Part shown: piece by piece, positions 1,684 through 26,462 of the stretch
How the letters are laid out: the number at the start of each line of letters is the position of its first letter
Numbering within the stretch: position 1 is the stretch's first letter
NCBI GenBank assembly: GCA_023485845.1
Contig: JAMCZE010000010.1
Coordinates: forward strand, 89,448 to 153,447
DNA: 64,000 bases
Direction: 5' to 3'
DNA from: Patescibacteria group bacterium
Lineage (GTDB): Bacteria; Patescibacteriota; Microgenomatia; JAMCZE01
Notes under the pieces: generated by a model
The model's input: the letters and a program-made list of their open reading frames with translations, nothing else
Told to the model about the DNA's origin: nothing
The model's database searches: none
Translations under genes and position numbers: made by a program

Positions 1684-1776
1684 TTAAAATTCAAAAATCA
1701 AAATGCAAAATTGCAATTCAAAATTAAAAATTTTAACTTGGCCTTTAACTTTTAATTTTTGACTTTTGATTTTGTG
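1684..1776. repeat. Copy A of a ~95-bp AT-rich near-palindromic intergenic repeat
   Basis: TTCAAAAATCAAAATGCAAAATTGCAATTCAAAATTAAAAATTTTAACTTGGCCTTTAACTTTTAATTTTTGACTTTTGATTTTG. Its 43-nt core is identical to copy C. Confidence 0.8.
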
Positions 1777-1778
1777 TC

Positions 1779-2981
1779 GTGAATTATTTTATTTTTATCC
1801 TTAAATCAGCGGTTTTTGATTTCTCCCGCAACAAGGGACGGACGTTTTTAACGTCCTTGGGGATTCTGATCGGTGTTTTTGCCGTGGTGTTATTGGTGGC
1901 CCTGGGCTTGGGGTTAAAAAAATATATTGATCAGCAATTCCAAAGCTTAGGCAGTAACCTCATCATGGTGATGCCCGGCAATGTGGTTTCCAACGGCAGT
2001 TTCTCCGGTTCCGCCCCGATCGGCATTTCTTTTGATAACAAAGACGTGGCTACTTTGAAGCGGGTGCCAAACGTTGATGCCGTTCTGCCATTTTATGTCA
2101 AATTTCTCACCGCCTCGGCCAACGGCAACAGCAAAAGTCTGGAAATGCTGGGCAGCACGGCCGATGTGGTCACTGCCATGAACTTGGAAATCGAATATGG
2201 TGAGCCGTTCACCAAAGCCGATTTTGAACGCGGGGCCAAAAGGGTGATCATTGGGCCCAACGTGGCGGACAAGCTCTATGGCAGCAGCCCCAACGCCGTG
2301 GGCCAGCCAATTAAGCTTTCCGATCAAGCCTACACGGTCGTTGGAGTGACCAAGAGCAAAGGGGGTGGTGGCATCGGCGGTTCCAGTATTGATGATCGGG
2401 TGTTTACTTCTTACACGGCTATGTACAGTCTTAACCCCGGAAAAAAATTCTACGCTATTTATTTAACAGTGAATTCGCAAGATAATCTCACTCAAGTTAA
2501 AACCGACAGTCGGACGGCTCTGCTTAAACGTTATAAACCGGATGATTTCTCGGTGGTGGAAGCGTCGGAATTTCTTTCCGCCATTAATTCCATTTTTGGC
2601 ATCATTAACTCCATTCTGGTCGCTATCGCCGCCATTTCCCTTCTGGTCGGCGGCATCGGGATCATGAATATCATGTATGTCACCGTCACCGAGCGAATCC
2701 GGGAAATCGGCATCCGCCGAGCGGTTGGGGCAACTCGCTCTGACATTCTGACACAATTCTTAGTGGAGTCAGTAATTTTATCAGTGTTCGGCGGTTTAGC
2801 CGGACTGATCCTGGCCTTTTTGGCCACCCTGGCCGTGCAAAGTGCTTTCCCGGCCTACATTGACACCCAATCTGTCGCTCTTGCTCTAGGAGTTTCTTCC
2901 GCCATTGGAATAATCTTCGGCGTTTTGCCCGCCCGCCGGGCGGCTAACCTTTCCCCCATCGAAGCCATCAGATACGAGTGA
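1779..2981 (+). CDS. ABC transporter permease, FtsX/MacB type
   Basis: N-terminal TM, large periplasmic domain, C-terminal FtsX-like 3-TM bundle (GIGIMNIMYVTVTERIREIGIRRAVGA). GTG start. Confidence 0.8.
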   Translation: MNYFIFILKSAVFDFSRNKGRTFLTSLGILIGVFAVVLLVALGLGLKKYIDQQFQSLGSNLIMVMPGNVVSNGSFSGSAPIGISFDNKDVATLKRVPNVDAVLPFYVKFLTASANGNSKSLEMLGSTADVVTAMNLEIEYGEPFTKADFERGAKRVIIGPNVADKLYGSSPNAVGQPIKLSDQAYTVVGVTKSKGGGGIGGSSIDDRVFTSYTAMYSLNPGKKFYAIYLTVNSQDNLTQVKTDSRTALLKRYKPDDFSVVEASEFLSAINSIFGIINSILVAIAAISLLVGGIGIMNIMYVTVTERIREIGIRRAVGATRSDILTQFLVESVILSVFGGLAGLILAFLATLAVQSAFPAYIDTQSVALALGVSSAIGIIFGVLPARRAANLSPIEAIRYE

Positions 2982-2989
2982 TTTCTTAC

Positions 2990-3121
2990 CTACTTTCTTG
3001 CTTTCCTACTTTTAGCTTTCCTGTGGCTCGGGTGATCGCACTTGGTGCAGACTTCAATGATCCCCAGTCCCTTGCCCGTGCGGCACATTAGACATTCGCA
3101 ATGCCAACCGTGTTTGGTCAT
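2990..3121 (-). CDS. Possible 43-aa zinc-ribbon-like small protein (MTKHGWHCECLMCRTGKGLGIIEVCTKCDHPSHRKAKSRKARK)
   Basis: Not in the ORF track because it is under 60 aa. Preceded by GGAGGTGAGAAT Shine-Dalgarno with correct spacing. Six Cys plus His in CxC/CxxC spacing, basic tail. Confidence 0.3.
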   Translation of the reverse strand: MTKHGWHCECLMCRTGKGLGIIEVCTKCDHPSHRKAKSRKARK

Positions 3122-3152
3122 ATTCTCACCTCCTGATATCAGTGTAACATTT

Positions 3153-3770
3153 TTACCGCAGTAATTCTTCCAGCCAAATCCACCAACTACCGGTCTTATC
3201 TAAAAATGCTGATGTTATCAGCTGAAACGTCCGGAATAAATCAAAGCCGCCAGGCACGTCTTTACTGGCGGCCACTCCTAACCCGCGATTGCACAGCCAA
3301 TTTTTGCCAACCACGTGGCCGGGCAGATCCCGCATAATCACACTTTTAATCCCCAATCCTGGCGCCAGCCTTACCAACTCGGCTGCTTTTGTCGCCGACC
3401 CCTTGGCCGCCGGCAGCCAATCAACATCTTGCGGCACCACGCCGTCTGATTGCAGGCGGGTGTTGACAGTTAAGCGATCAGCTCCTGTCCATTCGGGTTG
3501 GTCAAAAACTGCCACCCGACCGGCTCGTTTCGCACCATAATCCCCGGCCGCCTGATCCAGCAGTTCCATTTGTGTCGGGCCAACGTTTCCATCCACTCCC
3601 ATCACCACCACCGCATCCGCTCTCTTCCCCGAAAAACAACTAATCCGCGCCCCGGAAACCAAATAGTTCTCCACCCGCCAGGCACTGGGCTGGTCAACAT
3701 TAACCACTACGATCGCTAAAAGGCCAACCAAGGCCCCAATTTTCACCATTCTCGCCCATTCCGCAGTCAT
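3153..3770 (-). CDS. Membrane-anchored protein, possibly DUF218/YdcF-SanA family
   Basis: N-terminal TM, then ADAVVVMGVDGN... resembling the DUF218 core. Weak by-eye similarity only. Confidence 0.35.
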   Translation of the reverse strand: MTAEWARMVKIGALVGLLAIVVVNVDQPSAWRVENYLVSGARISCFSGKRADAVVVMGVDGNVGPTQMELLDQAAGDYGAKRAGRVAVFDQPEWTGADRLTVNTRLQSDGVVPQDVDWLPAAKGSATKAAELVRLAPGLGIKSVIMRDLPGHVVGKNWLCNRGLGVAASKDVPGGFDLFRTFQLITSAFLDKTGSWWIWLEELLR

Positions 3771-3953
3771 AGCCTATAATACCATATTGACATTTCGAGA
3801 TTTTCTGGTAAACTACAGCTAACAATTTAATAATAAGCGCCCGACTGGAGTCACGATCCAGGAGCTGAGAGCCAAAATGCTCTACGGAAGTTGAACCGTA
3901 AAAATACAACAACTGGTGTCGTTGTAAGACGGAGCCTGAAATAAGGTTAATTA

Positions 3954-3981
3954 ACCAGCCAACGGGCTGGTCTTTTTATGC
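3954..3981 (+). terminator. Intrinsic terminator (CCAGCC-AACG-GGCTGG, then TCTTTTTAT)
   Basis: GC stem, 4-nt loop and T-run, seen directly. About 190 nt downstream of a TTGACA/TAAACT promoter-like pair at 3789-3817. Confidence 0.55.
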
Positions 3982-4017
3982 CTTCTTTATTCCCCGTCTT
4001 TGCTCCAGTTTGAAGAT

Positions 4018-4091
4018 GGTGGCGGAAGTCCAACGGTTGAGACATCCGGCTGTGAACCGGATTCTGGCGGGTTCAATTCCCGTCCGCCACC
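4018..4091 (+). tRNA. tRNA-His (anticodon GTG)
   Basis: Cloverleaf folded by eye. Extra G-1 pairs with C73. Acceptor GTGGCGG/CCGCCAC. Anticodon arm TCCGG-CTGTGAA-CCGGA. T arm GCGGG-TTCAATT-CCCGT. CCA not fully encoded. Confidence 0.85.
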
Positions 4092-4094
4092 CAT

Positions 4095-4352
4095 ATGGAA
4101 AGAGAGCAAAAATTTATGCCCGAACTCTGGCAATTAAAACTTTACCCTGGCACAAGCGAGTCTAAAACAATTAGACAGGTTCTTGCTGAGGAAAACGAAA
4201 GGAAAGCCACAGAGGTTGTCGGGCGGTGGAATATTGCTATCAACATTAATCCAGAGGATATTTTAGCGAAAGTCAAACCCAGGGCCGAAAGTTGGAATAG
4301 CAATACCAGACTAACAGACTTTAGTAGATTGGCAACACTTGATCTTCTCTAA
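4095..4352 (+). CDS. Hypothetical protein (85 aa), tRNA-His-adjacent
   Basis: ORF only. Overlaps the next ORF by 14 nt in another frame. Confidence 0.3.
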   Translation: MEREQKFMPELWQLKLYPGTSESKTIRQVLAEENERKATEVVGRWNIAININPEDILAKVKPRAESWNSNTRLTDFSRLATLDLL

Positions 4353-4818
4353 TTGGTTATCTAACGTTATTGCTTATGAGACCCGTCGGGCAATTAAAGC
4401 CCGCCAAACAGCAACAGTCGAGAAAAGTAAATTTCAAGACCTTGCACTAAAAGCGACAATTCTTGAACTTAAAGGCAAACCAAGCGTTCGATATGGCGAC
4501 AGCTTTAACGAAACGGTTTGTCGGGAAGCCGATATTGAACGGACCGATCTGAAAACAGCTGAAGGGATAACCATAGCAAAGATTCGAGATGCGCAAACTG
4601 ATGCCGACCTCATCAAATTCTTAGCTGCCAAGTCAACCAAAGAAGAGGCTGCCAAGTTAATAAGACTAAACAATCAGGTTCAGAGATTTCTCCCCAACCA
4701 AGAGGCAGTTTTGCGATTTATCGCTCTCACGTTTGACAACAACGGGGGATACTCTGCATTGTCAGACCTAGACGCATATAAATCTGACCCAAAACTTGAG
4801 CCAGTCCCGGTTATATAA
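4339..4818 (+). CDS. Hypothetical protein (159 aa). May be a frameshifted continuation of 4095-4352.
   Basis: ORF only. No recognisable motif. Confidence 0.35.
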   Translation: MIFSNWLSNVIAYETRRAIKARQTATVEKSKFQDLALKATILELKGKPSVRYGDSFNETVCREADIERTDLKTAEGITIAKIRDAQTDADLIKFLAAKSTKEEAAKLIRLNNQVQRFLPNQEAVLRFIALTFDNNGGYSALSDLDAYKSDPKLEPVPVI

Positions 4819-4985
4819 GTATTATGGGGTTCCAGCTAATCTGACTATTTTTATCTCGGACACATTCCAGATACTGCAGCAATGTAAGGCAATTTGTCCA
4901 AGCGCGAAACCCAGCAGTCAAGGTCGCCCCTATATCAGAGGCAACCGCTGACAACCCGCTGTACACCCAGGTTAAAGAACGGGTT

Positions 4986-5348
4986 TTGGGGGCAGTTACC
5001 ACATTTCAAGATCGTGACTTTCGAGATAAATGGGCCGCTAAGTTCGAGGATGCCTTCGAAAAGATTTCTGAGAGCCAGGTAAAACGCAAACTCTTCCCTC
5101 CCGAACAAATGAGATCCGCCTCGCTGCGAATCGCCAAAAACATTTGGGCGGTCAACGCTGCCCAAGGAGCTATTTTCAGTCAGATGGGGGCTAACACTAT
5201 CTTATTAAGCACCGAAAAACGAGCTAGAGATCAAAACTACGTCATTAATAGTGAAACCGCGCAAGACTTTCCCCCTGTGCTTTATATTCTAAGCGCTGCG
5301 GAAAAATGGAATAGAAAACTAACTGCTGGTTTTTTTGATATTATTTAA
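4986..5348 (+). CDS. Hypothetical protein (120 aa)
   Basis: ORF only. Ends 4 nt before hisS. Confidence 0.35.
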   Translation: MGAVTTFQDRDFRDKWAAKFEDAFEKISESQVKRKLFPPEQMRSASLRIAKNIWAVNAAQGAIFSQMGANTILLSTEKRARDQNYVINSETAQDFPPVLYILSAAEKWNRKLTAGFFDII

Positions 5349-5351
5349 CTG

Positions 5352-6602
5352 ATGGCTAAATTAATTGAGCCGAGAACCCTGCCGGGATTCCGGGATTTTT
5401 TGCCGGAAGACATGGCCGTGCGAAAAAAAGTCATTACCACCCTCACCGGAGTCTTTGAAAAGTTCGGTTTCCAGCCGTTGGAAAACCCCACCCTTGAATA
5501 CCAGGACATTCTTTTGGGCAAAAGCGGGACGGAAGCGGAAAAATTAATGTATCTCTTTTCTGATCCTGGCGGCCGTGATGTCGGCATGCGTTATGAACTG
5601 ACGGTTTCCACCGCCCGGGTTTTGGCCCAATATCCCCAGCTGCCAAAACCGTTCAAGCGCTACCAAATTCAGCCGGTTTGGCGCGCCGACAAGCCACAAA
5701 AGGGCCGCTACCGGGAAATCACCCAATGCGACATTGATATTTTTGGAACCACCTCACTCCTGGCGGACGCGGAAATTCTGGCCGTGGTTTATGAAGGGCT
5801 GAGAGCTTTAGGCTTTGGGCAATTTACAATCCGCGTCAACAGTCGGGAGATTCTCTTTGCGACCATGGCTAATGCCGGGATATCATCCGCTAGCCAACAA
5901 TTAAGTGCGATTCAATCAATCGACAAGTTGGACAAAAAAGCCGAGGATGAAGTGCGAAATGAACTCTCCAAAAAGGATTTTGGCGCACCAATAATTGACA
6001 GGATTTTTGAGAATATAAAAATAAGCAAACCAAACAAAAATATCGCCGAGTTGCTAGACCTGGCAGAAAAACTTGGCGTGCCCAACGATTTTCTTAAATT
6101 TGATCCGACATTGTCACGCGGCTTAGATTATTATACCGGCGTGGTTTTCGAAACAGCTGTCACCCAGCCGAAAATTGGGTCGGTCACCGGGGGCGGCCGC
6201 TACGACAAACTCATTGGCAAATTCACCGGCCAGGACATGCCCGCCACGGGCACGTCGTTTGGCATTGACCGGATCTGTGATGTGATTACAGAGTTGAATC
6301 TTTGGCCGGATTTGCCCAGAACGGCCACAAAAATCCTGGTGACGATTTTTTCTTTGGAGTTATTTGACCAATCACTGAAATTGACTGACCAGTTGCGAAA
6401 GAAAAATATTAACGCCGAAATTTATCTTGACCCGGCCGCCAAGTTGGACAAACAGCTCAAGTATGCCGACCAAAAAGGCATTCCCTTTGCCGCCATCGTC
6501 GGCCCGGAGGAAGCGGCCAAAAACCAGGTGACGATTAAAAACCTAGCTACTAAACAGCAAAAAACGGTTCCGGCAGAGAACCTAACCGATGAACTTCGAT
6601 AG
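5352..6602 (+). CDS. hisS: Histidine--tRNA ligase
   Basis: Class II aaRS motifs. N-terminal FRDFLPEDM, RYELTVSTARV, QPVWRADKPQKGRYREITQCDIDIFG and C-terminal anticodon-binding domain all align with HisRS. Confidence 0.9.
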   Translation: MAKLIEPRTLPGFRDFLPEDMAVRKKVITTLTGVFEKFGFQPLENPTLEYQDILLGKSGTEAEKLMYLFSDPGGRDVGMRYELTVSTARVLAQYPQLPKPFKRYQIQPVWRADKPQKGRYREITQCDIDIFGTTSLLADAEILAVVYEGLRALGFGQFTIRVNSREILFATMANAGISSASQQLSAIQSIDKLDKKAEDEVRNELSKKDFGAPIIDRIFENIKISKPNKNIAELLDLAEKLGVPNDFLKFDPTLSRGLDYYTGVVFETAVTQPKIGSVTGGGRYDKLIGKFTGQDMPATGTSFGIDRICDVITELNLWPDLPRTATKILVTIFSLELFDQSLKLTDQLRKKNINAEIYLDPAAKLDKQLKYADQKGIPFAAIVGPEEAAKNQVTIKNLATKQQKTVPAENLTDELR

Positions 6603-7521
6603 CCGCGCCAAGGCCATCATCGCCGTTTTTGCCGCCCAAATTATCTGGGGCGTGGCCGGGCTCCTGGTGAAGATTGTCCTGGCCGATGTTCCCCCATTTA
6701 GCCTGCTTTTTTTCAGGAGCCTTCTGACCTGTCTGATTCTCTACCCCATCCTGGAATACCGAGTCATCAAAGGCGAACGTTTGCAAACGATCTCTTCCCA
6801 AGACAAATGGACCATTTTTTGGGCCGGGTTTACCGGGGTTTTTCTTAATATTGCCCTCTACTTTATCGGTCAAAAATTAACCACCGTCATCGATGCCTGG
6901 GTTATCAACTCCACCGGAGCACTCTTTGTTATCCTTATTTCCTATATTTTCATTCGCGAGCGGCTCAACAGAATAGTCTACTTTGGGGTTGCCCTGGCTT
7001 TTGTCGGCACACTGGTGATCATTGGCACCCCCGTTCTGGGCATTGGCAGCGGCAGCATTCCTGGGAACCTCCTTATACTTGGCAGCACGCTGGTTTTAGG
7101 CATTTCCTATGTTCTCACCAAAAGATTGATGGACCGCTTTTCACCCCTCCTGCTTGCTTACTATTTTTTCCTTATCGGGCTGTTTTTTTCTTTGCCTTTT
7201 TTCCTCTGGGAATATCTTCAAAATCCCGGTTGGATAGCCGCTTTATCCACTGGCTCTTGGTTAATTATTGCCTACCTTACCATCGGCTCTTCCATCATCG
7301 CCTACGCTCTGGATAACTTTGCTCTCATTCGCCTTTCCGCTTCTGCCGTGGCCACTGCCGGCTATATCAGTGTCGTTATTGCTCTGGGCCTAGGAATAAT
7401 TTTCCTTCATGAACAAATGACCCCCTTCTTTATCGCCGGCACCATCATCACCTTCTGCGGCCTTTTCCTAGCCGAAACCCGTCACCCTAACCATCCTCTT
7501 CACAAGCTCCGGAGGAAATAG
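6589..7521 (+). CDS. EamA/DMT-family transporter (10-TM)
   Basis: Two repeated 5-TM EamA-like halves. Highly hydrophobic. Confidence 0.75.
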   Translation: MNFDSRAKAIIAVFAAQIIWGVAGLLVKIVLADVPPFSLLFFRSLLTCLILYPILEYRVIKGERLQTISSQDKWTIFWAGFTGVFLNIALYFIGQKLTTVIDAWVINSTGALFVILISYIFIRERLNRIVYFGVALAFVGTLVIIGTPVLGIGSGSIPGNLLILGSTLVLGISYVLTKRLMDRFSPLLLAYYFFLIGLFFSLPFFLWEYLQNPGWIAALSTGSWLIIAYLTIGSSIIAYALDNFALIRLSASAVATAGYISVVIALGLGIIFLHEQMTPFFIAGTIITFCGLFLAETRHPNHPLHKLRRK

Positions 7522-7533
7522 TATAATCATCCT

Positions 7534-7836
7534 ATGAAGACAGGCATCCATCCCCAATATTACCCGGCGGCGCAAGTTGTTTGCGCTTGCGGTAACACGT
7601 TCACCACCGGCTCCACTAAGCCGCAAATTCGGGTGGAAATCTGTGCCAAATGCCATCCTTTTTACACCGGACAACAAAAATTCGTGGACACCGTCGGCAA
7701 AATTGAGCGCTTCCAAGCCAAACAAAAAGCCGCCGCCGCCAAACAGGCCGTGGCCAAACAGAAGAAAGTGAAACAGCAGGAAGAAGACAATCGCCCCAAG
7801 ACTCTTCGGGAAATGCTTTTGGCCGCCAAAGACTAG
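7534..7836 (+). CDS. rpmE: 50S ribosomal protein L31 with Lys/Ala-rich C-terminal extension
   Basis: [10 protein letters not shown]...CACGN...[10 protein letters not shown] matches the L31 zinc-ribbon signature. Confidence 0.9.
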
Positions 7837-8709
7837 ATGGACTATCTCGAAAATCTCATTGCTGATCTGGACCAAAAAATTGCCCAGGCAAAACAACTGG
7901 CGCAAGATCCGGAGATGGCGGAAATGGCCCAGGAAGAAATTAAAAAACTGGAGGAAGAGAAAAGTGCCCTGGTTAAGCCGGCTGCTAGTCCCGAGCAGTC
8001 ACTTAACTCCCGCGATATCATAATCGAAATCAGGGGCGCGGCCGGGGGCGAAGAAGCCAAACTCTGGGGGCAAGATTTGCTGCGGACGTATTCCCGCTTT
8101 GCTCAAGCGCAAGGTTGGCGGGTAACCCCGGAAGGACCGCTCGCCATTAAAATTTCCGGTCGTGGCGTTTATGGCAAGCTGAAATATGAGTCCGGCGTCC
8201 ACCGGGTCCAGCGGGTGCCGGTGACAGAGTCATCAGGGAGAGTCCACACCTCCACCGCCACCGTGGCGGTTTTGCCGGAGTTGGAAGACGTGGACATTCA
8301 CATTGATCCGGCCGACATTCAGGAAGATTTCTACCGTTCCGGGGGTCACGGAGGTCAAAACGTGAACAAGGTGTCCTCAGCCGTCCGTCTCACCCACAAA
8401 CCCAGCGGTTTAGTTGTCACCTGCCAAGAAGAACGAGATCAGCCGAAAAACCGGGCTAAAGCTATGGAAAAACTGCGCCAACTGCTCTGGGAAGCGGAAC
8501 AAAACCGCCAACTGGCGGAAATGTCTGCCGACCGGCGGGCCCAGGTGGGCACGGGCATGAGAAACGAGAAAATCCGCACCTACAACTTCCTTCAGGACCG
8601 GGTCACAGACCACCGTCTTGACCAAAACTTCCACAACCTTGAAAAGATTATGGAGGGAGACCTAGAAGAAATAATTAAGAGCTTGACAGATAAGTTTGGG
8701 GCAATATAA
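7837..8709 (+). CDS. prfA: Peptide chain release factor 1 (short form)
   Basis: GGQ motif (SGGHGGQNVNK) and RF1-type PVT tripeptide (RVQRVPVTESSGRVHTS). Confidence 0.85.
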   Translation: MDYLENLIADLDQKIAQAKQLAQDPEMAEMAQEEIKKLEEEKSALVKPAASPEQSLNSRDIIIEIRGAAGGEEAKLWGQDLLRTYSRFAQAQGWRVTPEGPLAIKISGRGVYGKLKYESGVHRVQRVPVTESSGRVHTSTATVAVLPELEDVDIHIDPADIQEDFYRSGGHGGQNVNKVSSAVRLTHKPSGLVVTCQEERDQPKNRAKAMEKLRQLLWEAEQNRQLAEMSADRRAQVGTGMRNEKIRTYNFLQDRVTDHRLDQNFHNLEKIMEGDLEEIIKSLTDKFGAI

Positions 8710-8717
8710 TAAGGCAA

Positions 8718-9032: not shown

Positions 9033-9069
9033 GCATAAACTTGCCGCCGGTTAGAAACGCCAAGACAAC

Positions 9070-9825: not shown

Positions 9826-9891
9826 CTTTTGGTTGCAAAAGAAATTTGGGGCGGTATAATTGGAATCTGCTTTCTTCAAAAATAAAAGCTG

Positions 9892-14069: not shown

Positions 14070-14162
14070 TTAATTTAAAATTTAAAAGGTAAAATGCAAA
14101 ATTACAATTAAAAATTAATAATTTTAACTTGGACTTTTAACTTTTAAATTTTGACTTTTGAA
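14070..14162. repeat. Copy B (diverged) of the AT-rich repeat. Its right arm supplies the last codons of rpsF.
   Basis: AAAATGCAAAATTACAATTAAAAATT...TTAACTTGGACTTTTAACTTTTAAATTTTGACTTTTGAATT. Confidence 0.7.
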
Positions 14163-14437
14163 TTAACTAACAAGTGTCGTAACACATTATCCATCAGCCG
14201 CAACTTCTTGTCCACCGTGGAAACCTTATCCGGAGCCATGGACACTTCAAAATAGAGATAAAAGGCCTCGCGCTGCTTCCCCACTTCATAAGCCAAGGGC
14301 TTTTTTGCCGGGTCTTTCTTGGACTTAATTTTTGCTCCTTGATCAGCAATTAGATCAGTCAGGTCCTTAACCGCTTTGTCCAATTCTTTCTGGGTCAATG
14401 TTGGTGCCAAAAGCACCGTCAGTTCATAATCTCTCAT
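14144..14437 (-). CDS. rpsF: 30S ribosomal protein S6
   Basis: MRDYELTVLL... S6 signature. The last codons lie in the repeat element. Confidence 0.9.
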   Translation of the reverse strand: MRDYELTVLLAPTLTQKELDKAVKDLTDLIADQGAKIKSKKDPAKKPLAYEVGKQREAFYLYFEVSMAPDKVSTVDKKLRLMDNVLRHLLVNSKVKI

Positions 14438-15542: not shown

Positions 15543-16553
15543 TCAAGTTCCCACTTTAAATTCCACCACGTCCCCGTCCTGCATTTCATAGTCTTTCCCT
15601 TCCAGTCGTGTTTTTCCTTGATCCCGGCAATTTTTCCAACCACCTTGACTAACAAAATCTACATAATTCACCACTTCGGCTTTAATGAAGTTTTTTTCAA
15701 AATCGGTGTGGATTACCCCGGCCGCCGCCGGGGCCTTGGTTCCCCGGGCAATAGTCCAGGCCCGAACCTCTTTGACGCCAGCGGTTAAAAATGAGATTAA
15801 ATTCAAAGACGCGTAAGTGGTGCTGATCAGCTGATCAACGCCGGAATCCTTGACTCCCAGGCTCTCCAGATATTCCTCCCGCTCATCGGCGGTCAGCACC
15901 CCCAGCTCCGCTTCCAATTTGGCGTCAATCACTACCGCGTCTTTGCCGTTATTCCGTAGATTATTCACTATTTCCTGTAATCCTGCCCACTGTGATGTGG
16001 TGTTCACATTAAGAACATAAATAATTTTCTTGGCCGTCAACAGTTGCAGCGGCTTCCCCGCTTCCCCCGCCATCTCCCCCCGATTTAGTCTTTGTTCAAG
16101 CTCAGAATTTTGAATTTTGAGTTTTGCCTTTTGATTTTCTATTGTCTGCAAATCTGCCAAAATTAACTCCGTGTTAATCACGTCGATATCCGACTTTGGC
16201 TCGCTGCTGCCCTCGCGAATCACGTCGTCATCGGGAAACGCCCGGACTACTTCGCAAATTAAATCCACCTCCCGAATGTGGGACAGAAATTTATTGCCCA
16301 GCCCCGCTCCGGTGGAAGCCCCCTTGACCAAGCCGGCAATATCCACAAACTGCACCGTCGCCGGAACAATCGGCGAATTATAAATCGCCGCCAGCTTATC
16401 CAGCCGCCCATCCGGCACCGGGACAATCCCCACATTGGGGTCAATGGTGGCAAAGGGATAATTGGCCACCAACGCCTGCTGCCGCCGCAAAAGAGCATTA
16501 AATAAAGTTGATTTTCCGACGTTTGGTAAGCCGACGATCCCTACTTGCAGCAT
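15543..16553 (-). CDS. ychF: Ribosome-binding ATPase YchF (Obg-like ATPase)
   Basis: [28 protein letters not shown]-terminal TGS-like [10 protein letters not shown]...HTDFEKNFI. Confidence 0.9.
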
Positions 16554-17823: not shown

Positions 17824-17854
17824 CAAAAACAAAGTGAAGGAGGTGAAAGAAAGA

Positions 17855-18049: not shown

Positions 18050-18050
18050 A

Positions 18051-18350: not shown

Positions 18351-18389
18351 AATATTAATGGGCAGTGTGCATATAATACAATATTAACT

Positions 18390-18995: not shown

Positions 18996-19003
18996 TAAAA
19001 GCT

Positions 19004-19216: not shown

Positions 19217-19218
19217 GG

Positions 19219-19905
19219 TTATTGCGTCACGATGCGGATGCGGGCGGAAGAGAGATAGCCGGTGGTGATGGTGGAATACATCTGCACCCGGTAGGTTTTA
19301 GATCCGGCGGAAAGAGCGATTGGGACAGAAAGATATTGATCGGTGTTGGAAGCGGAAGAAACCTCACTGCCCCAGATGATTGCCGGGGTGGTGGCATCAA
19401 AGAGGCGGGCATGAACTTCCCCGGAGGAAACATGCAGGGTGGCTTCAAAATAGGCTTGTTTAATCGTCCCGAAATTACTGGTGTCCAGCGTCACCTGGGT
19501 GGCCGTCAAATCTGTCCAGTTATTTGTTTGGCTCACACTTCCCGATCCGAGAAAAACGGATGACTCGCCTTTGGTGGAAACTGGAGCCGGGACACTGGCG
19601 GCGGGAACAGACACGGTTTTGGGAAGAGAATTAATTAAACTGACGCAGCTTTGGGGGCAGGAGTTATCGGTGGCCGCCGGAGTTGGTTGGGCGCCGCTCA
19701 GAGGGCTCTGCCCGGCGGGCGCGGTGGAAATGGTGGCCAAACGGTTGCCCAACTGGCTGAAACTGTCGGACAACGTTGCCAGCCGTGTTTGAAAATCACT
19801 TAAATCCCCGCCTTGCTTGACCACCATAAAATCAAGCAGCAAAATATTGGCGGCAAAAATGAAGCCAACGACACCAAGAACGATGGGCAGTCTACTTTCC
19901 CACAC
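19219..19905 (-). CDS. Membrane-anchored secreted hypothetical protein
   Basis: N-terminal TM, Ser/Thr/Pro-rich linker, C-terminal beta-rich domain. Confidence 0.45.
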   Translation of the reverse strand: MWESRLPIVLGVVGFIFAANILLLDFMVVKQGGDLSDFQTRLATLSDSFSQLGNRLATISTAPAGQSPLSGAQPTPAATDNSCPQSCVSLINSLPKTVSVPAASVPAPVSTKGESSVFLGSGSVSQTNNWTDLTATQVTLDTSNFGTIKQAYFEATLHVSSGEVHARLFDATTPAIIWGSEVSSASNTDQYLSVPIALSAGSKTYRVQMYSTITTGYLSSARIRIVTQ

Positions 19906-21208
19906 GGTTATCTTTTATTGTAAACCCTTTTTCTTCGATTTGCTTCCTAATCTCATCCGCCTGGTCATACTTGCCCTGTGCCCGCAATTTCTCCCGTTTT
20001 GCCAATAGTTCCTTAATCTCCACCGGCGTTTCTTTGATCGCGTCAAGTTTTAATCCCAACACTTGATCCATTTTTAGCAGGCTTTCATAACTGTTGGTTT
20101 TCCAGGCCACCGCCAGGGCTTTCGGCAAATTTAAATCATCGTTGACCGCCGCCAAAAATTCCACTTCATCTGCAGGGGTTGAACTCCTGTTTGTGGCTTT
20201 AAGATGCTCCGCTCGCTCCCGCAGGCGGTTTAAGGCAGTTTGCGCCCCTTCCAGAGATTGCCAGGTGAAATTTAGCCCGGTGCGATAGTGGGAATTAAGA
20301 ATTAAATAACGGTGGGCCAGGGGGTCAAAACCCTTAGCGATCAAATCCTGCACCGTCACGTTATTGCCCAAACTCTTGCTCATTTTCTCGCCGTTTATCA
20401 CCAGCCACTCGTTATGAAGCCAAAAGTTGGCCGTCTGGTGGCCAAACGCGCCATAGGCTTGGGCGATTTCGTCGGTGTGGTGGACCGGGATATGCTCCTT
20501 ACCGCCGGTGTGAATGTCAAACGTTTCCCCCAGATATTTGACGGACATGGCCGTGCACTCGATGTGCCAGCCGGGAAAGCCGACGCCCCAAGGGCTGTCC
20601 CATTTCATCACGTGCTCCGGCTGGTTGGTCACCCAAAGGAGAAAGTCCCAGGGCTGTTTTTTCCCCGGATCCACCGCCACCCGCGCCCCGGCCTCCTGTT
20701 TTTTTAAATTTAACTTAGCAAATCGCGCATAATCGGGGAATTTTGCCGTGTCAAAAACCAAACCGGTGGCCGTTTTATAGGCAAATCCGTTCGCTTCAAT
20801 TTTTTTAATTAATTCGATTTGTTCGGGAATATGCTGCGTCGCCCGGCACAAAACATCCGGCTGTTGGACATTTAAAGCCTCCATGCTATCGATGAATTGG
20901 GAAATATATTTGTCGGCAATCTGCCAGACGGACAGACCTTCCCGCTTAGCGCCCTTTTCCATTTTGTCTTCACCGGCGTCTTCGTCGGAAGTCATGTGGC
21001 CAACGTCGGTGATGTTCATCACCCATTTAACCGCCACTTTCTCAAAACGCAGCGCCCGCACCAAACAATCCCAGTGGACATAGGCATACATGTGGCCCAG
21101 ATGCTGGTTCCAATAAACCGTCGGGCCGCAGGAATAGATCCCGACCTGGCCCTCTTTGATCGGTCGAAATTCCTCAATTTTCCGAGTTAAAGTATTAAAT
21201 AATTTCAC
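19892..21208 (-). CDS. cysS: Cysteine--tRNA ligase
   Basis: HIGH-type HLGH and KMSKS motifs, class I CysRS architecture. Confidence 0.9.
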   Translation of the reverse strand: MKLFNTLTRKIEEFRPIKEGQVGIYSCGPTVYWNQHLGHMYAYVHWDCLVRALRFEKVAVKWVMNITDVGHMTSDEDAGEDKMEKGAKREGLSVWQIADKYISQFIDSMEALNVQQPDVLCRATQHIPEQIELIKKIEANGFAYKTATGLVFDTAKFPDYARFAKLNLKKQEAGARVAVDPGKKQPWDFLLWVTNQPEHVMKWDSPWGVGFPGWHIECTAMSVKYLGETFDIHTGGKEHIPVHHTDEIAQAYGAFGHQTANFWLHNEWLVINGEKMSKSLGNNVTVQDLIAKGFDPLAHRYLILNSHYRTGLNFTWQSLEGAQTALNRLRERAEHLKATNRSSTPADEVEFLAAVNDDLNLPKALAVAWKTNSYESLLKMDQVLGLKLDAIKETPVEIKELLAKREKLRAQGKYDQADEIRKQIEEKGFTIKDNRVGK

Positions 21209-21632
21209 CTGAATGGATTATATATTTTTACTTCCTTGCTGGCCGAAAAGTGCTTATCTTCGCTAACTAAAAAATCCATCGTATGAGCCTGGGCGGTCGC
21301 CATTAAAAAAAGGTCCATCACGTGCAATTTGCTACTTTTAAGATATTTACTAAAAATATTAATCGTTTCCTGGTTCGGATAAATGACTGTCAGCTCAGAA
21401 ATAAGTTTCTCAATACCCACCGAGATAGAAGTGCCATCCACATGATAGGTGTTTTGTAGGACGGATGATAATTCTAAAATATTCTGCGAAGAAATAAAGC
21501 CAGACAGTTCACCATCAGAAATCCTTTCAAACAGAGGCCGCACCAAACTATGCTTTTGCGATTGTGCATTTAAATATGCTACTAAAATGTTAGTGTCCAA
21601 CAGGCACTTTGCGCCGGAGGTAGGAATCATAG
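21205..21632 (-). CDS. vapC: PIN-domain toxin (VapC-like). Start ambiguous (ATG at 21632 or TTG at about 21599).
   Basis: LLDTNILVAYL N-terminal PIN signature with later acidic residues. Overlaps the upstream small ORF. Confidence 0.7.
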
Positions 21633-21835
21633 AGCTCCTCTCTGGACGGGGGGTTCTTCCCGCCAAGATTGTATTTACCAGCAAGATCCATTAACTTACT
21701 TGCCTTGGGCCTAGTTCCACCCAATTTTTTCTGGACTATCCCAGAAAAGGACGTTCTTTGTTGAAACGCCTCAAGGCGCAAAGTTTCATACAGATCTTGC
21801 GGCATAGTGATGGTGGTGCGGACTAATGCGTTCAT
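21590..21835 (-). CDS. Putative antitoxin (VapB-like) of the PIN toxin
   Basis: 81-aa ORF immediately upstream of the PIN gene and overlapping it. Confidence 0.5.
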   Translation of the reverse strand: MNALVRTTITMPQDLYETLRLEAFQQRTSFSGIVQKKLGGTRPKASKLMDLAGKYNLGGKNPPSREELYDSYLRRKVPVGH

Positions 21836-21866
21836 ACTTGAATATTATCATACAATCATACTCTTG

Positions 21867-22265
21867 TCAACCACCAACTGCTCCTTTAAACTCCCCCGTG
21901 GATTTGGAGGACTTGAGCATTTTGGCGACAGCGTCATCGGCTGGTTTTTGAACCGGTGCCGGTTCCACTGTCTGGTTTGTCTGATTAGTCTGGTTCATCT
22001 GCGATGTCTTTAAGCGCTGGCGCGCTAGCTCTTCGCGGACTTTTTTGATGCGCATCTGTGCCAACTGGGCCACCTGCTGATTGAGTTTTGTCAGCACTGG
22101 CTTGCTGGGAACCGGCTTGCCTGTGACCAAGTCTTTCTTGTCATCCGGCGACGGTGGCGCTGGTTTGGCAGTCACCTGCTTTTTGACCACCCGCACCCCC
22201 TCTTCCAGTTTTTCCCCCAATTCGTCAGAGAATTTATTTTGCAAATTATTACTATCCATTACCAA
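21867..22265 (-). CDS. Hypothetical Lys/Gln/Pro-rich protein with NQTNQTNQT repeat
   Basis: ORF only. Low complexity. Confidence 0.3.
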   Translation of the reverse strand: MVMDSNNLQNKFSDELGEKLEEGVRVVKKQVTAKPAPPSPDDKKDLVTGKPVPSKPVLTKLNQQVAQLAQMRIKKVREELARQRLKTSQMNQTNQTNQTVEPAPVQKPADDAVAKMLKSSKSTGEFKGAVGG

Positions 22266-22373
22266 TTATTCTACTACAGCGATAACGGTTTGAGCGAGTA
22301 AAAAGCGCAGACGGGGCACCGCGAGCGCAGCGAAGTGGTCAAAGAGCGAGCATTTTTACCGCGAAAACCTCGA

Positions 22374-23336
22374 TCAGATAACCGCCGGCTCCAGAATTTC
22401 CAACCGCATTTTCTTTGTGTCCATCCCCGCCACCACCCCCACCGGCACGGTGGCTTGCGGGACTTCATGGCCGAAATCCACACCATAAATAATCGGGAAC
22501 CCGAACGGCTCGGTGGCTTCCAAAAGCAGCTCTTTTTTGGTCGGGAAATTTTGATAGTCAAGCTCTTTAACCGCTGTTAATTTGCCCACCAGCATCCCGG
22601 CCACCCGTTTGAGAAACCCGCTGTTGCGAATCTGCCAAAAGTTGCGCATGATCTCACTAAACTGATCATAACCCTCCTCCCAGAAGAAGATAAATTTCTG
22701 GTCTTTGCCAAAAACCCGGTCCAAGGCGGCAATCGGATCCCATGGTGTGCCCAAAAGTTTGCAGATACAGCTTAAATTGCCGCCGAACAAAACTCCCTGG
22801 GCTGCGCCATCGCGCATTGATTGCCACACCGACTGCGGCTCAATCACTTCTTCGCCAGAAGTGGTCGTCAGCATTTTCCAAAAGCAACTCACCGTGTAGC
22901 CGGTGATCTTTCGCGTCGGGAAGAAAGCCGCGTTGGGACTATGGAAAGTGACCATGGCGCATTTAACCAGCAGAGCCATCTGGATGGTGGTCGCGTCGGA
23001 ATAACCGGCGAAGATTTTGGGGTTTTTGCAAATCGCGTCGAAATCCAGCAATTCCAACTCCTGGGAGCCGACAAAACCGCCGACGGCGGAGAAAACGGCC
23101 TTCACATTGGGATCGGCAAAAGCGGCGTTGAGGTCATCCGCCCGCTGCCGAGCGGAACCGGCGCTGTAGTCCCCCACACTGGCCATGATGTTAGCGCCAA
23201 ACTTAATCTCGTGGTTAAATTTGCGAAAAAATGCTTCCATCCCTGCTTTTTCCGAAGCTAAAATCGGCTCCGACGGCGCCACCACGGCCACGACGTCCCC
23301 CTTCTCGAGCGCTTTTGGTTTAACAATCCCGGCCAT
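22374..23336 (-). CDS. LD-carboxypeptidase (peptidase S66, LdcA/MccF-like)
   Basis: VVAPSEP..., GYSDATTIQMAL nucleophile region, C-terminal catalytic-triad region. Confidence 0.75.
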   Translation of the reverse strand: MAGIVKPKALEKGDVVAVVAPSEPILASEKAGMEAFFRKFNHEIKFGANIMASVGDYSAGSARQRADDLNAAFADPNVKAVFSAVGGFVGSQELELLDFDAICKNPKIFAGYSDATTIQMALLVKCAMVTFHSPNAAFFPTRKITGYTVSCFWKMLTTTSGEEVIEPQSVWQSMRDGAAQGVLFGGNLSCICKLLGTPWDPIAALDRVFGKDQKFIFFWEEGYDQFSEIMRNFWQIRNSGFLKRVAGMLVGKLTAVKELDYQNFPTKKELLLEATEPFGFPIIYGVDFGHEVPQATVPVGVVAGMDTKKMRLEILEPAVI

Positions 23337-23345
23337 GAACCTATT

Positions 23346-23951
23346 TTACTCGTAATCCCGTCTTCCTTCCAGTGCCCGACTTAGGGTGGTTTCGTCGGCA
23401 TACTGGATATCTCCGCCGGTGGGCATACCCATCCCCAAACGTGTCACCTTTAGCTTGTAGCTTTTAGCTTGTAGCTTTTTAGCGATGAACATCGCGGTCG
23501 CTTCACCCTCCATCGTCGGATTCAACGCCAAGATGATCTCACTTACCTGCTCTCCTGCTATCCTGCTTACTAGACTTTCTATATACAATTCTTCCGGCCC
23601 GATGTTATGCAGGGGATCAATCACCCCATGAAGAACGTGGTAGAGGCCGTTATATTTGCCCACCTTTTCCAAGCTGAAAACGTCCAACGGCGTCTCCACC
23701 ACACAGATTATCCGCTGATTTCGCCGATCATCGACGCATATTTCGCAGACTTCAGTTTCGCAAAAGTTTTTGCAAACCGAGCACAGCTGAATGCCAGATT
23801 TGAGATTAAGCACCGCTTCCCCGAATTTTTTCACTTCCGGCTCCGGCATATGGAGAAGATAGAACGCCAGCCGGGCGGCGCTCTTTGGCCCCACTCCCGG
23901 GAGGCGTTCAAACGCCTCGGTTAGATCCTGGATTTGTTTGGGAAAGGTCAT
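23346..23951 (-). CDS. recR: Recombination protein RecR
   Basis: HhH N-terminus, C4 zinc finger CSVCKNFCETEVCEIC, Toprim domain. Confidence 0.9.
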   Translation of the reverse strand: MTFPKQIQDLTEAFERLPGVGPKSAARLAFYLLHMPEPEVKKFGEAVLNLKSGIQLCSVCKNFCETEVCEICVDDRRNQRIICVVETPLDVFSLEKVGKYNGLYHVLHGVIDPLHNIGPEELYIESLVSRIAGEQVSEIILALNPTMEGEATAMFIAKKLQAKSYKLKVTRLGMGMPTGGDIQYADETTLSRALEGRRDYE

Positions 23952-24241
23952 TGTGCCACCCCACCCATTCCGCCGGACAGCTGTTGAAGTTTGCCGGCCG
24001 CGACCATCTGCGATTTATAGAGCACTTCCCCCAGCGCCGCTTCCAGTTCATAGTCCCGGGTGCCGTCAACGGACACCTCCACCACTTTTTGGTCCCCGGT
24101 TAAAACAATTTTCAGTAACCCCTTAGCCGTTTGCTTGGTCACCTCCACTTGCTCGGCCGCCAGCTGCTGCTGGATTTTCTGTGCTGTTTGGCGCATCTGA
24201 TTAAGATCGCCAAGTTGTTTTAAGCCATCAAACATTCCCAT
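23948..24241 (-). CDS. ybaB: Nucleoid-associated protein YbaB/EbfC
   Basis: About 97 aa, MGMFDGLKQLGDLNQMRQTAQKIQQQL... as in YbaB. Lies between dnaX and recR. Confidence 0.85.
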   Translation of the reverse strand: MGMFDGLKQLGDLNQMRQTAQKIQQQLAAEQVEVTKQTAKGLLKIVLTGDQKVVEVSVDGTRDYELEAALGEVLYKSQMVAAGKLQQLSGGMGGVAQ

Positions 24242-25545
24242 TATTTCTCACCTCTTTCTTTTTGTCCCTGGACAAATTTCACTTTAATTGTCCGACCCAT
24301 TATATCAGAAATAGCCTTTTCCAAAATCTCCCGATTCTTGGCCTCCTCCAGCCGATCCTTGTGAAATTTATAAAACACTTCCAGGGTTAAAAACCCATCG
24401 GTCAGCTCTTTTGGCCGGCTGGCCCGAAGCAGGGCCACCAAACCATGATTGTGTTCCTTGGTTTTAACTAAAATTTCTTCCCAGGGAACGGGCGAAACGG
24501 ACGGATCGGGGCGTTTGGGCTTATCCGGAATACTGGAGGCAATTATAGAATCTTGTTTACCACACCATTCGATCACCACCATTTCTAATGGCAGTGACGG
24601 CACCGGACAATCACGCATCAAGCTATAAGCCCCGATCAATTTATTTATTAGATCGGTGGTGTTAACCATATCAACACTTCCGGATAATAATTTATTTCTA
24701 AGATTGCTAATTAGTTCACTAATAAGCTCTTTTATTTTTCCATCACCGGCAGCATAGTCACCAATTAATTTTAACGCCGCTTTTGAATCCTTGTTTTCCA
24801 GAGATTGCAGGAGCTTATCCGCCAAATCGGGACTAACCCGGTTAATCGCGTCCAGGTCCGCCATTTTAATGTTAGCACTCATCATGGACAACTGCTCAAA
24901 TAGTTTCTGCGCGTCCCGATGCGCCAAACCCACCATTTCCACGATCCGTTCCAGAACTCGGTCCTCCACGGTGATTTTTTCCTGTTTAGAGATTAGCTTT
25001 AGCTTGTCAATAACGTCTTGCCGGCTGGGAGTGAAATCATAAACCAAGCAGCGGGACGTCACCGTGGCCGGAAGTTTCTGGGGATCGGTCGTCGCCAAAA
25101 CAAAAACCACATGGACCGGTGGCTCCTCTAAAATTTTAAGCAGGGCGTTGAAAGCAGAGTTGGAGAGCATGTGAACTTCGTCGATGATGTAGACTTTATA
25201 ACGGCTGGAGCTGGGGGTCAGCTTGGCTTTCTCCCGCAGATCACGGATATCATCCACGCCGGTGTTGGATGCGGCGTCGATTTCAATCACATCCAACGAC
25301 GAACCAGCGGTGATTGCCCGGCAGGAGTCACATTTATTGCACGGCTCCTGCCCAATTTGGCGCTTCTCGCAATTAAGGATTTTGGCAATCAGCCGGGCCG
25401 TGGTGGTCTTGCCCGTGCCCTTTGGGCCAATTAGCAGATAGGCATGTGCCCACTTATTCTCCAATAGCGCCTTGCCCAGTGTTTCCCGGACCCGTTTGTT
25501 GTCCAACTCACCAATGGTTTGCGGCCTATATTTAAGAAAGAACAT
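24241..25545 (-). CDS. dnaX: DNA polymerase III subunit gamma/tau
   Basis: AAA+ clamp loader. GPKGTGKTT Walker A, CxxC zinc module (CEKRQIGQEPCNKCDSC), SRC motif. Confidence 0.9.
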   Translation of the reverse strand: MFFLKYRPQTIGELDNKRVRETLGKALLENKWAHAYLLIGPKGTGKTTTARLIAKILNCEKRQIGQEPCNKCDSCRAITAGSSLDVIEIDAASNTGVDDIRDLREKAKLTPSSSRYKVYIIDEVHMLSNSAFNALLKILEEPPVHVVFVLATTDPQKLPATVTSRCLVYDFTPSRQDVIDKLKLISKQEKITVEDRVLERIVEMVGLAHRDAQKLFEQLSMMSANIKMADLDAINRVSPDLADKLLQSLENKDSKAALKLIGDYAAGDGKIKELISELISNLRNKLLSGSVDMVNTTDLINKLIGAYSLMRDCPVPSLPLEMVVIEWCGKQDSIIASSIPDKPKRPDPSVSPVPWEEILVKTKEHNHGLVALLRASRPKELTDGFLTLEVFYKFHKDRLEEAKNREILEKAISDIMGRTIKVKFVQGQKERGEK

Positions 25546-25898
25546 TATTCGTGGTGGATGCCAAGCAGATGTAACACGCCGTGGGAAACCAGCTCCCCGA
25601 TCTTGGTGTCCACCAAAACATTATCGTCGTTTGCCTCCCGTTGCGCCAGGGGGTAACAAACAGCAATGTCTCCCAACACCGGGAAACCTTCCTGGGGAAA
25701 CGACAAAACGTTATGGGGAGTGTTGTCCCGCAGATATTTTTTGGCCAGTGCCTGGCTTTTGCGCCGGCCGCAGATTAAAACGGAAACTTCCACTTCCGAA
25801 GTCACCCGCCGCTCCCGCAGCGTTGCTTCCACCGCCGCCTTAATTTTGGCTTTGTTCACCGGAAACTTTGAGTCCGCAGAAATCAGAACATGTGCCAT
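25545..25898 (-). CDS. ybeY: Endoribonuclease YbeY (rRNA maturation factor)
   Basis: HGVLHLLGIHHE zinc-binding motif. Confidence 0.75.
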   Translation of the reverse strand: MAHVLISADSKFPVNKAKIKAAVEATLRERRVTSEVEVSVLICGRRKSQALAKKYLRDNTPHNVLSFPQEGFPVLGDIAVCYPLAQREANDDNVLVDTKIGELVSHGVLHLLGIHHE

Positions 25899-25918
25899 AA
25901 GTGACTAGGTTCTAGGCT

Positions 25919-26365
25919 CTAGTCACTAGCCACTAGAACCTCTTTCGTTATTTGTGCAATTATTGCCCCGTCGGCTTTGCCGCGCAGCTCCCCCATGGCC
26001 AGTTTCATCAGGGTCGGAAAATCGGCAGTTTGGTTCTGGGTTTTTAGATCTTTGATCTTAGATCTTATATCTTCCTCGGACATTTGCGCCGGCAAATAGC
26101 TTTGAAGAATTGCCAGTTGAGCTGACTCCCGCTCCACCAAATCCGTCCGTTTGGCCTGGGTGAACATCTCAATTGACTCTTTATGAGTTTTCACCTGTTT
26201 GGCAACAACCGATAAAACATCGGCGTCGGTGGCCACATAATCCTTGCCTTTCTCTATTTGGAAGTTAAAAATTGCCCCCAAGAGAAAACGCAACGTATCG
26301 ACCCGCGTCTGATCCCTGTTCTTCTGTGCTTGTGCCAATTCTTGTTGAATCTGATCTAACAACAT
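25919..26365 (-). CDS. GatB/YqeY-domain protein
   Basis: Full-length similarity to YqeY-type proteins. Confidence 0.7.
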   Translation of the reverse strand: MLLDQIQQELAQAQKNRDQTRVDTLRFLLGAIFNFQIEKGKDYVATDADVLSVVAKQVKTHKESIEMFTQAKRTDLVERESAQLAILQSYLPAQMSEEDIRSKIKDLKTQNQTADFPTLMKLAMGELRGKADGAIIAQITKEVLVASD

Positions 26366-26462
26366 GACAGAAATTCAAAACTCAAAAATCAAAATGCAAA
26401 ATTGCAATTCAAAATTAAAAATTTAAGCTTGAATTTTTGACTTTTAAATTTTGATTTTTAAC
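26366..26462. repeat. Copy C of the AT-rich repeat (between rpsU stop and the YqeY-like gene start)
   Basis: CTCAAAAATCAAAATGCAAAATTGCAATTCAAAATTAAAAATTTAAGCTTGAATTTTTGACTTTTAAATTTTGATTTTTAACTT. Confidence 0.8.

Follow-up and report, generated by a model that had tools for sequence, protein, structure and literature searches.

This analysis concerns a repeat of about 95 bp that occurs three times (copies A, B and C) in a 64,000-nt stretch of a Patescibacteria group bacterium (assembly GCA_023485845.1, contig JAMCZE010000010.1, positions 89,448 to 153,447 of the forward strand; hereafter the window), where each copy fills the gap between two genes of an operon. We propose, with a probability of roughly 0.6, that the three repeats are derivatives without an open reading frame (ORF), or 'solo stems', of a small selfish cassette of the intervening sequence (IVS) type that were inserted into operon spacers. 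A complete cassette would consist of an A-rich arm of 7-nt repeats leading into an ATG, an ORF of about 120 codons for a four-helix-bundle protein of the PF05635/TIGR02436 type (S23p), and a T-rich, complementary arm of 7-nt repeats starting from the stop. The window copies would have retained the first arm, the ATG, about ten codons, a stop (in copy C) and the second arm, the body of the ORF being gone.

The evidence for this descent lies in the conserved A-rich arm, in which 7-nt repeats are followed by an ATG and ten codons (MQN[C/Y]NSKLKI). This ATG and its ten codons are the 5' end of genes from a PF05635/TIGR02436 subfamily ('23S rRNA intervening-sequence protein'). At three loci (L081, L115 and L136, with a host G+C of 57%, 30% and 43%, respectively) the ATG of the left arm opens an ORF that matches PF05635 with E = 3e-21 to 3e-22, and also TIGR02436; the T-rich right arm begins at the stop of that ORF and ends a few nucleotides before the ATG of the next gene. 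The same arm-ORF-arm layout is found on two contigs with further homologues (L156 and L162) and at positions 3946-4317 of a Terrybacteria contig (L006), and at all six loci the terminal arms that flank the ORF are complementary. Among the 120 best homologues of the L136 protein, which are 61-72% identical to it and mostly labelled Patescibacteria, more than 100 start with MQN[Y/H]NSKFKSDL, from which it follows that the ten codons of the arm encode the N-terminus native to a large subfamily of four-helix-bundle proteins. The left arms in the window can be aligned with the 5' ends of the cassettes without gaps over 60 nt, at 67-82% identity. Copy C, which on its own strand reads ATG, ten codons, TAA and right arm, is the ORF-bearing cassette minus the body of the ORF. 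Both forms can be found side by side: the Terrybacteria contig has five ORF-less copies and one ORF-bearing copy in a single operon. A PF05635 gene that is more distantly related (L080) sits between complementary arms of short-period repeats that differ from those of the element, so the architecture seems to be general and the sequence of the arms specific to the subfamily.

That the three window copies belong together can be established independently of the cassettes. A profile built from the three copies (nhmmer) recovers A at 1682-1773 (E = 2e-22), B at 14073-14164 (E = 1.8e-20) and C at 26373-26466 (E = 3.7e-22), all in the places where an earlier note on this DNA had reported them; the exact 43-nt core that it had seen in A and C is likewise there, at 1691 and 26382, and in a MAFFT alignment of the three the mean column identity is 85%. 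One could imagine that spacers of such extreme composition (19%, 14% and 18% G+C for A, B and C, compared to 48% for the window) resemble each other by chance, all the more so when a 7-nt periodicity makes their registers alike. We regard this as refuted by the exact 43-mer and the E-values of about 1e-20 to 1e-22 per copy. In addition, a 27-mer from the arm matches the window three times when up to three mismatches are allowed, where shuffled sequence leads us to expect 0.00 matches, and the 27-mer recurs with matching flanks in 150 stretches elsewhere. The similarity is thus neither limited to three sites nor a matter of A/T low complexity, as it would have been under one of the refuting outcomes named in the earlier note.

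Outside the window, the exact left-arm 27-mer (AAAATGCAAAATTNCAATTNAAAATTA) is present in 46 stretches from GTDB species-representative genomes and in 104 metagenome stretches. Scans of IMG/VR with the exact and with a relaxed pattern returned no match and no sign of a phage carrier. The sequences that flank the 27-mer are alike across stretches: the arm is a series of imperfect 7-nt repeats (consensus ..AAATTCAAAATTCAAAATTCAAAATGCAAAATTACAATTCAAAATTAAAAATT, with units such as AAAATTC and AAAAATC), past which lie a variable centre and then T-rich 7-nt repeats of the TTTTGAC and TTTTAAC types. According to the record labels, the hosts comprise many Patescibacteria lineages, Omnitrophota (including the closed chromosome CP070655.1), Nitrospirota, Zixibacteria, Ignavibacteria, Actinomycetota (among them a metagenome-assembled genome, or MAG, whose contig ends bear seven copies) and MAGs of Gammaproteobacteria. 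Family members occupy non-homologous sites in many genomes. On the Terrybacteria contig, the six copies lie within 8 kb, all in one orientation, and at least four of them begin at the stop of one gene and take up nearly all of the space before the following start. In a Portnoybacteria MAG (L005), the 16S rRNA gene is interrupted by a full copy, 138 nt long, that is inserted at the tip of helix 6 and has a predicted fold of -41 kcal/mol (z -8.2). A literature search for the sequence string and for palindromic repeats or miniature inverted-repeat transposable elements (MITEs) of the candidate phyla radiation (CPR) turned up nothing relevant.

The copies have been inserted into very short operon spacers, which can be seen directly at rpsF-ssb. 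The window genome groups with Microgenomates and other Patescibacteria, and its best SSB relatives are about 70-73% identical. In three relatives rpsF and ssb are separated by 1 nt, separated by 11 nt, or overlap by 20 nt, and because the junction is that short or overlapping we read copy B, which fills a gap here, as an insertion. S6 ends in LLVKAE or LLVNSD in relatives and in LLVNSKVKI here. As the earlier note had recognised, this tail is encoded by the element: the right arm of copy B supplies the last codons (KVKI, following NS) together with the stop, and the left arm ends about 6 nt short of the ATG of ssb. The T-rich 7-nt repeats hold TGA in all three frames; insertions at the end of a gene therefore just add a short tail, as in S6, and mini-ORFs that start from the ATG of the arm always stop in the right arm. 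The mini-ORF of copy A, which starts at 1703, has 19 codons (MQNCNSKLKILTWPLTFNF, then a stop). These observations, along with the many non-homologous sites occupied elsewhere, uphold the description of the element in the earlier note as a dispersed, inserted, palindromic repeat. The pairs of flanking genes that it had named are confirmed by Pfam (ABC ATPase and MacB/FtsX permease, S6 and SSB, S21 and YqeY), and the copies do lie in the gaps between them. All three copies have the same orientation in the window, and only A is co-oriented with its genes (Table 1). A Logan contig that carries the yqeY gene of the window ends 36 nt upstream of it, inside copy C; such a break is expected because the element is a repeat.

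Table 1. Copies of the element and other features of the window discussed in the text (strand of the element for its copies and its partial arm)
Feature	Position	Strand	Context
Copy A	1681-1776	+	Sense to the operon; gap between ABC ATPase (1011-1682, +) and MacB/FtsX permease (1779-2981, +)
Copy A, A-rich 7-nt-repeat left arm	~1681-1733		
Copy A, T-rich right arm	~1734-1776		
Copy B	14072-14166	+	Antisense to the operon; gap between rpsF (14437-14144, -) and ssb (14065-13502, -)
Copy C	26372-26466	+	Antisense to the operon; gap between rpsU (26645-26463, -) and yqeY (26365-25919, -)
Partial left arm (32 nt)	58644-58675	-	In frame in alpha/beta-hydrolase ORF (58217-59170, -)
Weak element match	16095-16138		Within ychF; probably chance similarity
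Unrelated 90-nt AT palindrome	30352-30441		Exactly fills the gap between rpsB (30442-31152, -) and tsf (29905-30351, -)
83-nt G+C-rich stretches	41631-41713 and 42671-42753		Probably paralogous coding segments of neighbouring genes

A number of observations weigh against descent from a selfish IVS-type cassette, or at least against its simplest form. To begin with, the host phyla listed above are taken from record titles, and the taxon labels of MAGs may be wrong owing to binning errors. Second, tblastn with six PF05635 proteins detects no such ORF in the 64-kb window, only the N-terminal peptide encoded by the arm, which is why we class the window copies as ORF-less derivatives rather than as complete cassettes. 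Third, the earlier note had expected a long imperfect hairpin, and although hairpins are predicted for all three copies, their energies are modest. On the transcribed strand the minimum free energy is -11.8 kcal/mol for A (z -0.6, no better than shuffled sequence), -15.4 kcal/mol for B (z -3.8) and -24.5 kcal/mol for C (z -3.9), which makes C the best hairpin of the three. The stems are irregular and consist of AU pairs only, and their pairing potential is largely compositional, an A-rich arm being followed by a T-rich one. A check for compensatory changes, the absence of which the earlier note had named as refuting, gave no signal: left arms pair with their own right arm no better than with foreign right arms (self -18.3 versus non-self -18.8 kcal/mol, permutation p = 0.87), in a comparison that has low power, since choosing the set by an exact 27-mer leaves next to no variation in the left arm. 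The two arms are asymmetric, the left one being conserved and the right one genome-specific. Note also that the 'left arm' quoted in the earlier note (CAAAATCAAAAGTCAAAAATT) is absent from the window; what was quoted is just the right arm at 1754 in reverse complement, and the best ungapped match of that complement to the real left arm of A amounts to 16/21. An AU-rich hairpin of this kind can fold so as to bring the upstream stop and the downstream start together.

Fourth, the genomic context of the family contains a signal that a purely selfish element would not be predicted to leave. Our context statistics are based on about 110 non-redundant copies, with crude longest-ORF calls and some loci that are related to each other. 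Of 91 copies with two called neighbours, 80 lie between co-directional genes, compared to 762 of 1052 background pairs (odds ratio 2.8, p = 8e-4), and since such copies sit inside operons we expect the element to be co-transcribed with the genes that flank it. Full hairpin copies show no orientation bias (22 sense, 27 antisense, p = 0.57). In copies that consist of the arm only, however, sense orientation prevails by 27 to 7 (p = 8e-4), and in 17 of 39 such copies the ATG of the arm is the start of a downstream ORF of at least 60 aa; counting all 125 non-redundant instances, an ORF of this length starts from the ATG of the arm in 25. Genes that begin in this manner encode, amongst others, Def, Fmt, a prepilin, a POR subunit, FmdE and PF05635 proteins. 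What is more, three orthologous permease-def loci agree at every position of a 35-nt core of the arm, yet are only 44-54% identical at third codon positions. Core conservation and sense bias both suggest that the arm itself is under selection, perhaps in the role of a start module. Alternatively, both may reflect the survivorship of in-frame fusions along with conversion from other copies.

Might the element then primarily be a portable expression module, in which an unstructured A-rich leader or a promoter-like run of 7-nt repeats, an AUG and ten A-rich codons drive translation of the downstream gene without a Shine-Dalgarno sequence, with the palindromic copies as a by-product? The sense bias of arm-only copies, the ORFs that they start and the invariant core at def would all be accounted for. 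The window genome would also be a receptive host: Shine-Dalgarno-like motifs are found at only 9 of its 71 called genes, and a TATAAT box lies a few nucleotides upstream of many start codons (for example at 7534, 8718, 14487, 17465, 18390, 36682 and 59297), from which one may suppose that leaderless transcripts are widespread in this Patescibacteria genome. We nevertheless consider such a module unlikely to be the explanation. Only copy A is in sense orientation in the window, and its ATG opens a 19-codon ORF that leads nowhere, while B and C are antisense; full hairpins are unbiased; and A, B and C have no promoter consensus in common. The bias of the half copies can also arise through survivorship, in that a deletion removing the start of a gene is viable only if the ATG of the arm can substitute for it in frame. 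We also considered whether the arm might encode a small conserved peptide, and rejected this because the mini-ORF ends at variable places, after 5 to 25 codons. Adenine mutagenesis of the kind known from diversity-generating retroelements was rejected as well, the A-runs being the most conserved columns and not the most variable ones.

How, if derived from a cassette, did the copies spread? The element-bearing loci and IMG/VR have yielded no transposase, no consistent target duplication and no phage copy. The earlier note had likened the element to MITE- and repetitive extragenic palindromic (REP)-type repeats, and one might accordingly think of a classical element of either kind, mobilised in trans by a transposase or a REP-associated tyrosine transposase (RAYT)-type enzyme encoded elsewhere. 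Multiple copies in both orientations, presence/absence differences between relatives, contig breaks, imperfect inverted arms and the TA or TAA that often precedes the left end are all what such an element would produce. The comparison with MITEs holds insofar as the window copies are miniatures of a longer, ORF-bearing element that have kept its termini and lost its interior, with both forms in one genome (L006). It lacks support in that the only longer form found carries PF05635 and no recognisable transposase, and in that target-site duplications are not consistent across A, B and C: B can be read as flanked by TA or TTAA and A and C have none, with 7-nt slippage blurring the ends. A REP, on the criterion of a G+C-rich imperfect palindrome of about 20-40 nt with a conserved GTAG-type head and a RAYT (the same criterion covering bacterial interspersed mosaic elements), the element is not, being 95 nt long and 14-19% G+C, with asymmetric arms and no head of that type. 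Mobilisation along these lines is, in our view, improbable.

About equally improbable, we believe, is a regulator selected by the host, be it an attenuator, a terminator acting in both directions, a stabiliser of mRNA or a device for translational coupling, that would be retained so that rpsF and ssb, rpsU and yqeY, and the ATPase and the permease are expressed differentially. The idea draws on the fact that the element spans the distance from stop to start and is indifferent to orientation, as a palindromic terminator would be, and on the presence of different palindromes in comparable positions. One relative has a different 95-nt palindrome in the same ABC-ATPase/permease gap as copy A (L152 17790-17884), made up of ACGAATAT/ACAAATAT 8-mers, with a predicted energy of -41.6 kcal/mol (z -8.8); it is the sole such palindrome in the 20 kb fetched. 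In the window itself, the rpsB-tsf gap is filled by an unrelated palindrome of TAATTTC-type 7-nt repeats (core 9% G+C; -20.1 kcal/mol, z -4.1 on the transcribed strand), and similar TAATTTC repeats fill the spacer of 31 nt between ssb and rpsR in a relative (L152 10555-10584) and recur at L107 886-915. On the other hand, no copy contains a G+C-rich stem with a T-run, so that the terminator or attenuator suggested in the earlier note is not borne out, and A, B and C share no terminator consensus. Relatives manage with rpsF-ssb spacers of 1 nt or 11 nt, or with overlapping genes, and the same sequence turns up in an rRNA helix, within coding regions and, elsewhere, around an ORF.

Several other classes of element were examined and discarded. 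Integron attC sites do not fit: by eye, there are no RYYYAAC...GTTRRRY cores at the ends, the flanking genes are core housekeeping genes and both orientations occur. TIGR-Tas arrays were rejected because their reported 36-nt guide RNAs do not match a period of 7 nt and each window copy stands alone between housekeeping genes. IHF sites, boxA and motifs resembling T7 epsilon (again by eye) are either missing from the consensus of the family or, in B and C, would lie on the strand that is not transcribed. Rfam 15, run over the whole window at gathering thresholds, reports five tRNAs and no family for the element; at E <= 1, five element-bearing loci give only rRNA, tRNA and spurious miRNA-type matches.

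We return, then, to the derivation from an IVS-type cassette and to the systems that the element resembles most. The IVS in the 23S rRNA of Coxiella burnetii is described as a selfish element with a stem of terminal inverted repeats that RNase III cuts, an S23p ORF that is reported to decay, and tandem heptameric repeats (GACAGAT, two to three times) just upstream of the ATG of that ORF (PMC4990558). In the roughly 30 years since IVSs and S23p proteins became known, neither their origin nor their function nor a mechanism of mobility has been established; in older hypotheses, IVSs were regarded as mobile elements that use their ORF for mobility (PMC4990558). A survey of rRNA insertions in the CPR has described 23S_rRNA_IVP ORFs in both 16S and 23S insertions, along with short IVSs of the RNase III type at classical 23S sites (PMC11270868). 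The family described here shares with IVSs that carry an S23p ORF (in the 23S rRNA of Coxiella burnetii, Leptospira and Brucella and in the 16S and 23S rRNA of the CPR) the complementary arms around a PF05635 ORF, which its cassettes have; the heptameric repeats upstream of the ATG, in architecture only, as the sequence of the repeats differs from that in Coxiella; and a member at the tip of an rRNA helix, namely helix 6 of the Portnoybacteria 16S rRNA. It differs in that the window copies lie in mRNA spacers between protein-coding genes and not in rRNA, lack an ORF, are present in multiple copies and have an arm of 7-nt repeats that hardly differs between phyla. Moreover, excision by RNase III has been demonstrated for rRNA IVSs, and for the stems in the window we infer cleavage by analogy with these, which is a further point on the debit side. 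No rnc signature was found within the 64-kb window, a result that is uninformative with regard to the RNase III step. All things considered, we take the element to be the known IVS/PF05635 class in a miniature, mRNA-borne, cross-phylum form and not a categorically new system.

Parallels with other small palindromic repeats are looser. Enterobacterial repetitive intergenic consensus sequences (ERICs, also known as intergenic repeat units, IRUs) are imperfect palindromes of about 100-130 bp that occupy transcribed spacers within operons and can face either way, with truncated and enlarged variants and presence/absence differences between relatives. Placement, size and variants are thus alike, but the sequences are unrelated. 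ERICs are not known to derive from an ORF-bearing element and occur in just a few gammaproteobacterial families that are related to each other, whereas the records with the present family are labelled with many phyla. Rickettsia palindromic elements (RPEs) are small palindromic repeats that also occur in frame in protein-coding genes, to which they add peptide segments, much as the element does in the window hydrolase, in a TsaD discussed below and in the tail of S6; sequence and host range are different, and we know of no ORF-bearing form associated with RPEs. Correia elements of Neisseria and the intercistronic sites of phage T7, finally, form hairpins between cistrons that are transcribed along with these and are open to processing by RNase III, and the mode of action that we propose for the window copies would, by analogy, be the same. 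Correia elements, however, have defined terminal inverted repeats, TA duplications and ends like those of insertion sequences, and the T7 sites are not mobile repeats.

Fragments of the element can also be found inside genes. The partial left arm in the alpha/beta-hydrolase of the window (which, in inverted orientation, matches the left arms of A and C at 97% over 32-33 nt) directly precedes the GHSNGG nucleophile elbow. The loop before the elbow is a hot spot for insertions in this family of hydrolases: short homologues have no insert, several others have CKLKI..NCKL peptides that resemble the NCNSKLKI of the element, and yet others have longer inserts that resemble translated palindromes. 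A tsaD gene elsewhere (L062 11026-11977) has an in-frame left-arm insertion (..GHIYGNFLIQKSKIKMQNYNLKLKIDK..) between the NHxxGH and VSGGHT motifs; this gene has an apparent frameshift upstream, at about 11317, and may be a pseudogene or contain an assembly error. By comparison, the match in ychF is weak (E = 0.055) and falls in a lysine-rich segment of a protein that is not longer than its relatives.

Some variants of the family are more elaborate. In the Actinomycetota-labelled MAG Yes71-11 (L007 1700-2060), the arms flank about 155 nt of conserved cargo without coding function that recurs in related metagenome contigs (L003, L014, L016, L027, L032, L044, L063, L102, L106 and L137); the cargo-bearing element is preceded by short-period repeats of the GACCGCC type, and many copies are located at contig ends. 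Downstream of the left arm, five stretches (L016, L069, L078, L086 and L098) have a different repeat with GTCATTGCGAG, which looks like another widespread small palindromic repeat that is nested in the element or adjoins it. In the 16S rRNA gene of the Portnoybacteria MAG, there is a weak match to a group I intron downstream of the element (L005 6211-6792; 24.8 bits, below the gathering score). The two 83-nt G+C-rich stretches of the window are 72% identical and lie 1040 nt apart.

If the three repeats are solo stems of an IVS-type cassette, what would they do to the operons that harbour them? The co-transcribed AU stem would be a substrate for RNase III, which would cut the polycistronic RNA between the cistrons. 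The insertions are likely to be almost neutral for the host, or to have a mild modulatory effect, and they can be tolerated because the T-rich arm has stops in all frames and the next start codon stays intact. We speculate that a cut close to that start codon might be tolerated or even useful, given a Shine-Dalgarno-poor genome with TATAAT boxes near its starts. In a bolder version, to which we give little credence, PF05635 cassettes and gene-less stems would make up a cross-phylum, IVS-like family that can settle in any transcribed spacer, with the Avd-like four-helix-bundle protein that they encode as mobility or processing factor, and genomes that are poor in Shine-Dalgarno sequences and of the leaderless type would have co-opted the stems as RNase III sites, where polycistronic RNA is cut beside the following start codon, and the arm as a start module.

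The analysis ties together three things for which we found no such link in the literature searched: PF05635 cassettes with 7-nt-repeat arms, the rRNA insertions of the CPR, and a dispersed, gene-less miniature repeat that sits between essential genes of ultra-small genomes and has an arm that is conserved almost base for base across labelled phyla. If our interpretation is correct, the spread of IVSs would become open to study by way of filled and empty sites, pairs of ORF-bearing and ORF-less copies, and copies shared across phyla. A class of contig breaks and of odd N- and C-terminal peptides in the annotations of MAGs would likewise be accounted for and, if the analogy with rRNA IVSs extends this far, processing of operon transcripts by RNase III may be widespread in CPR bacteria.

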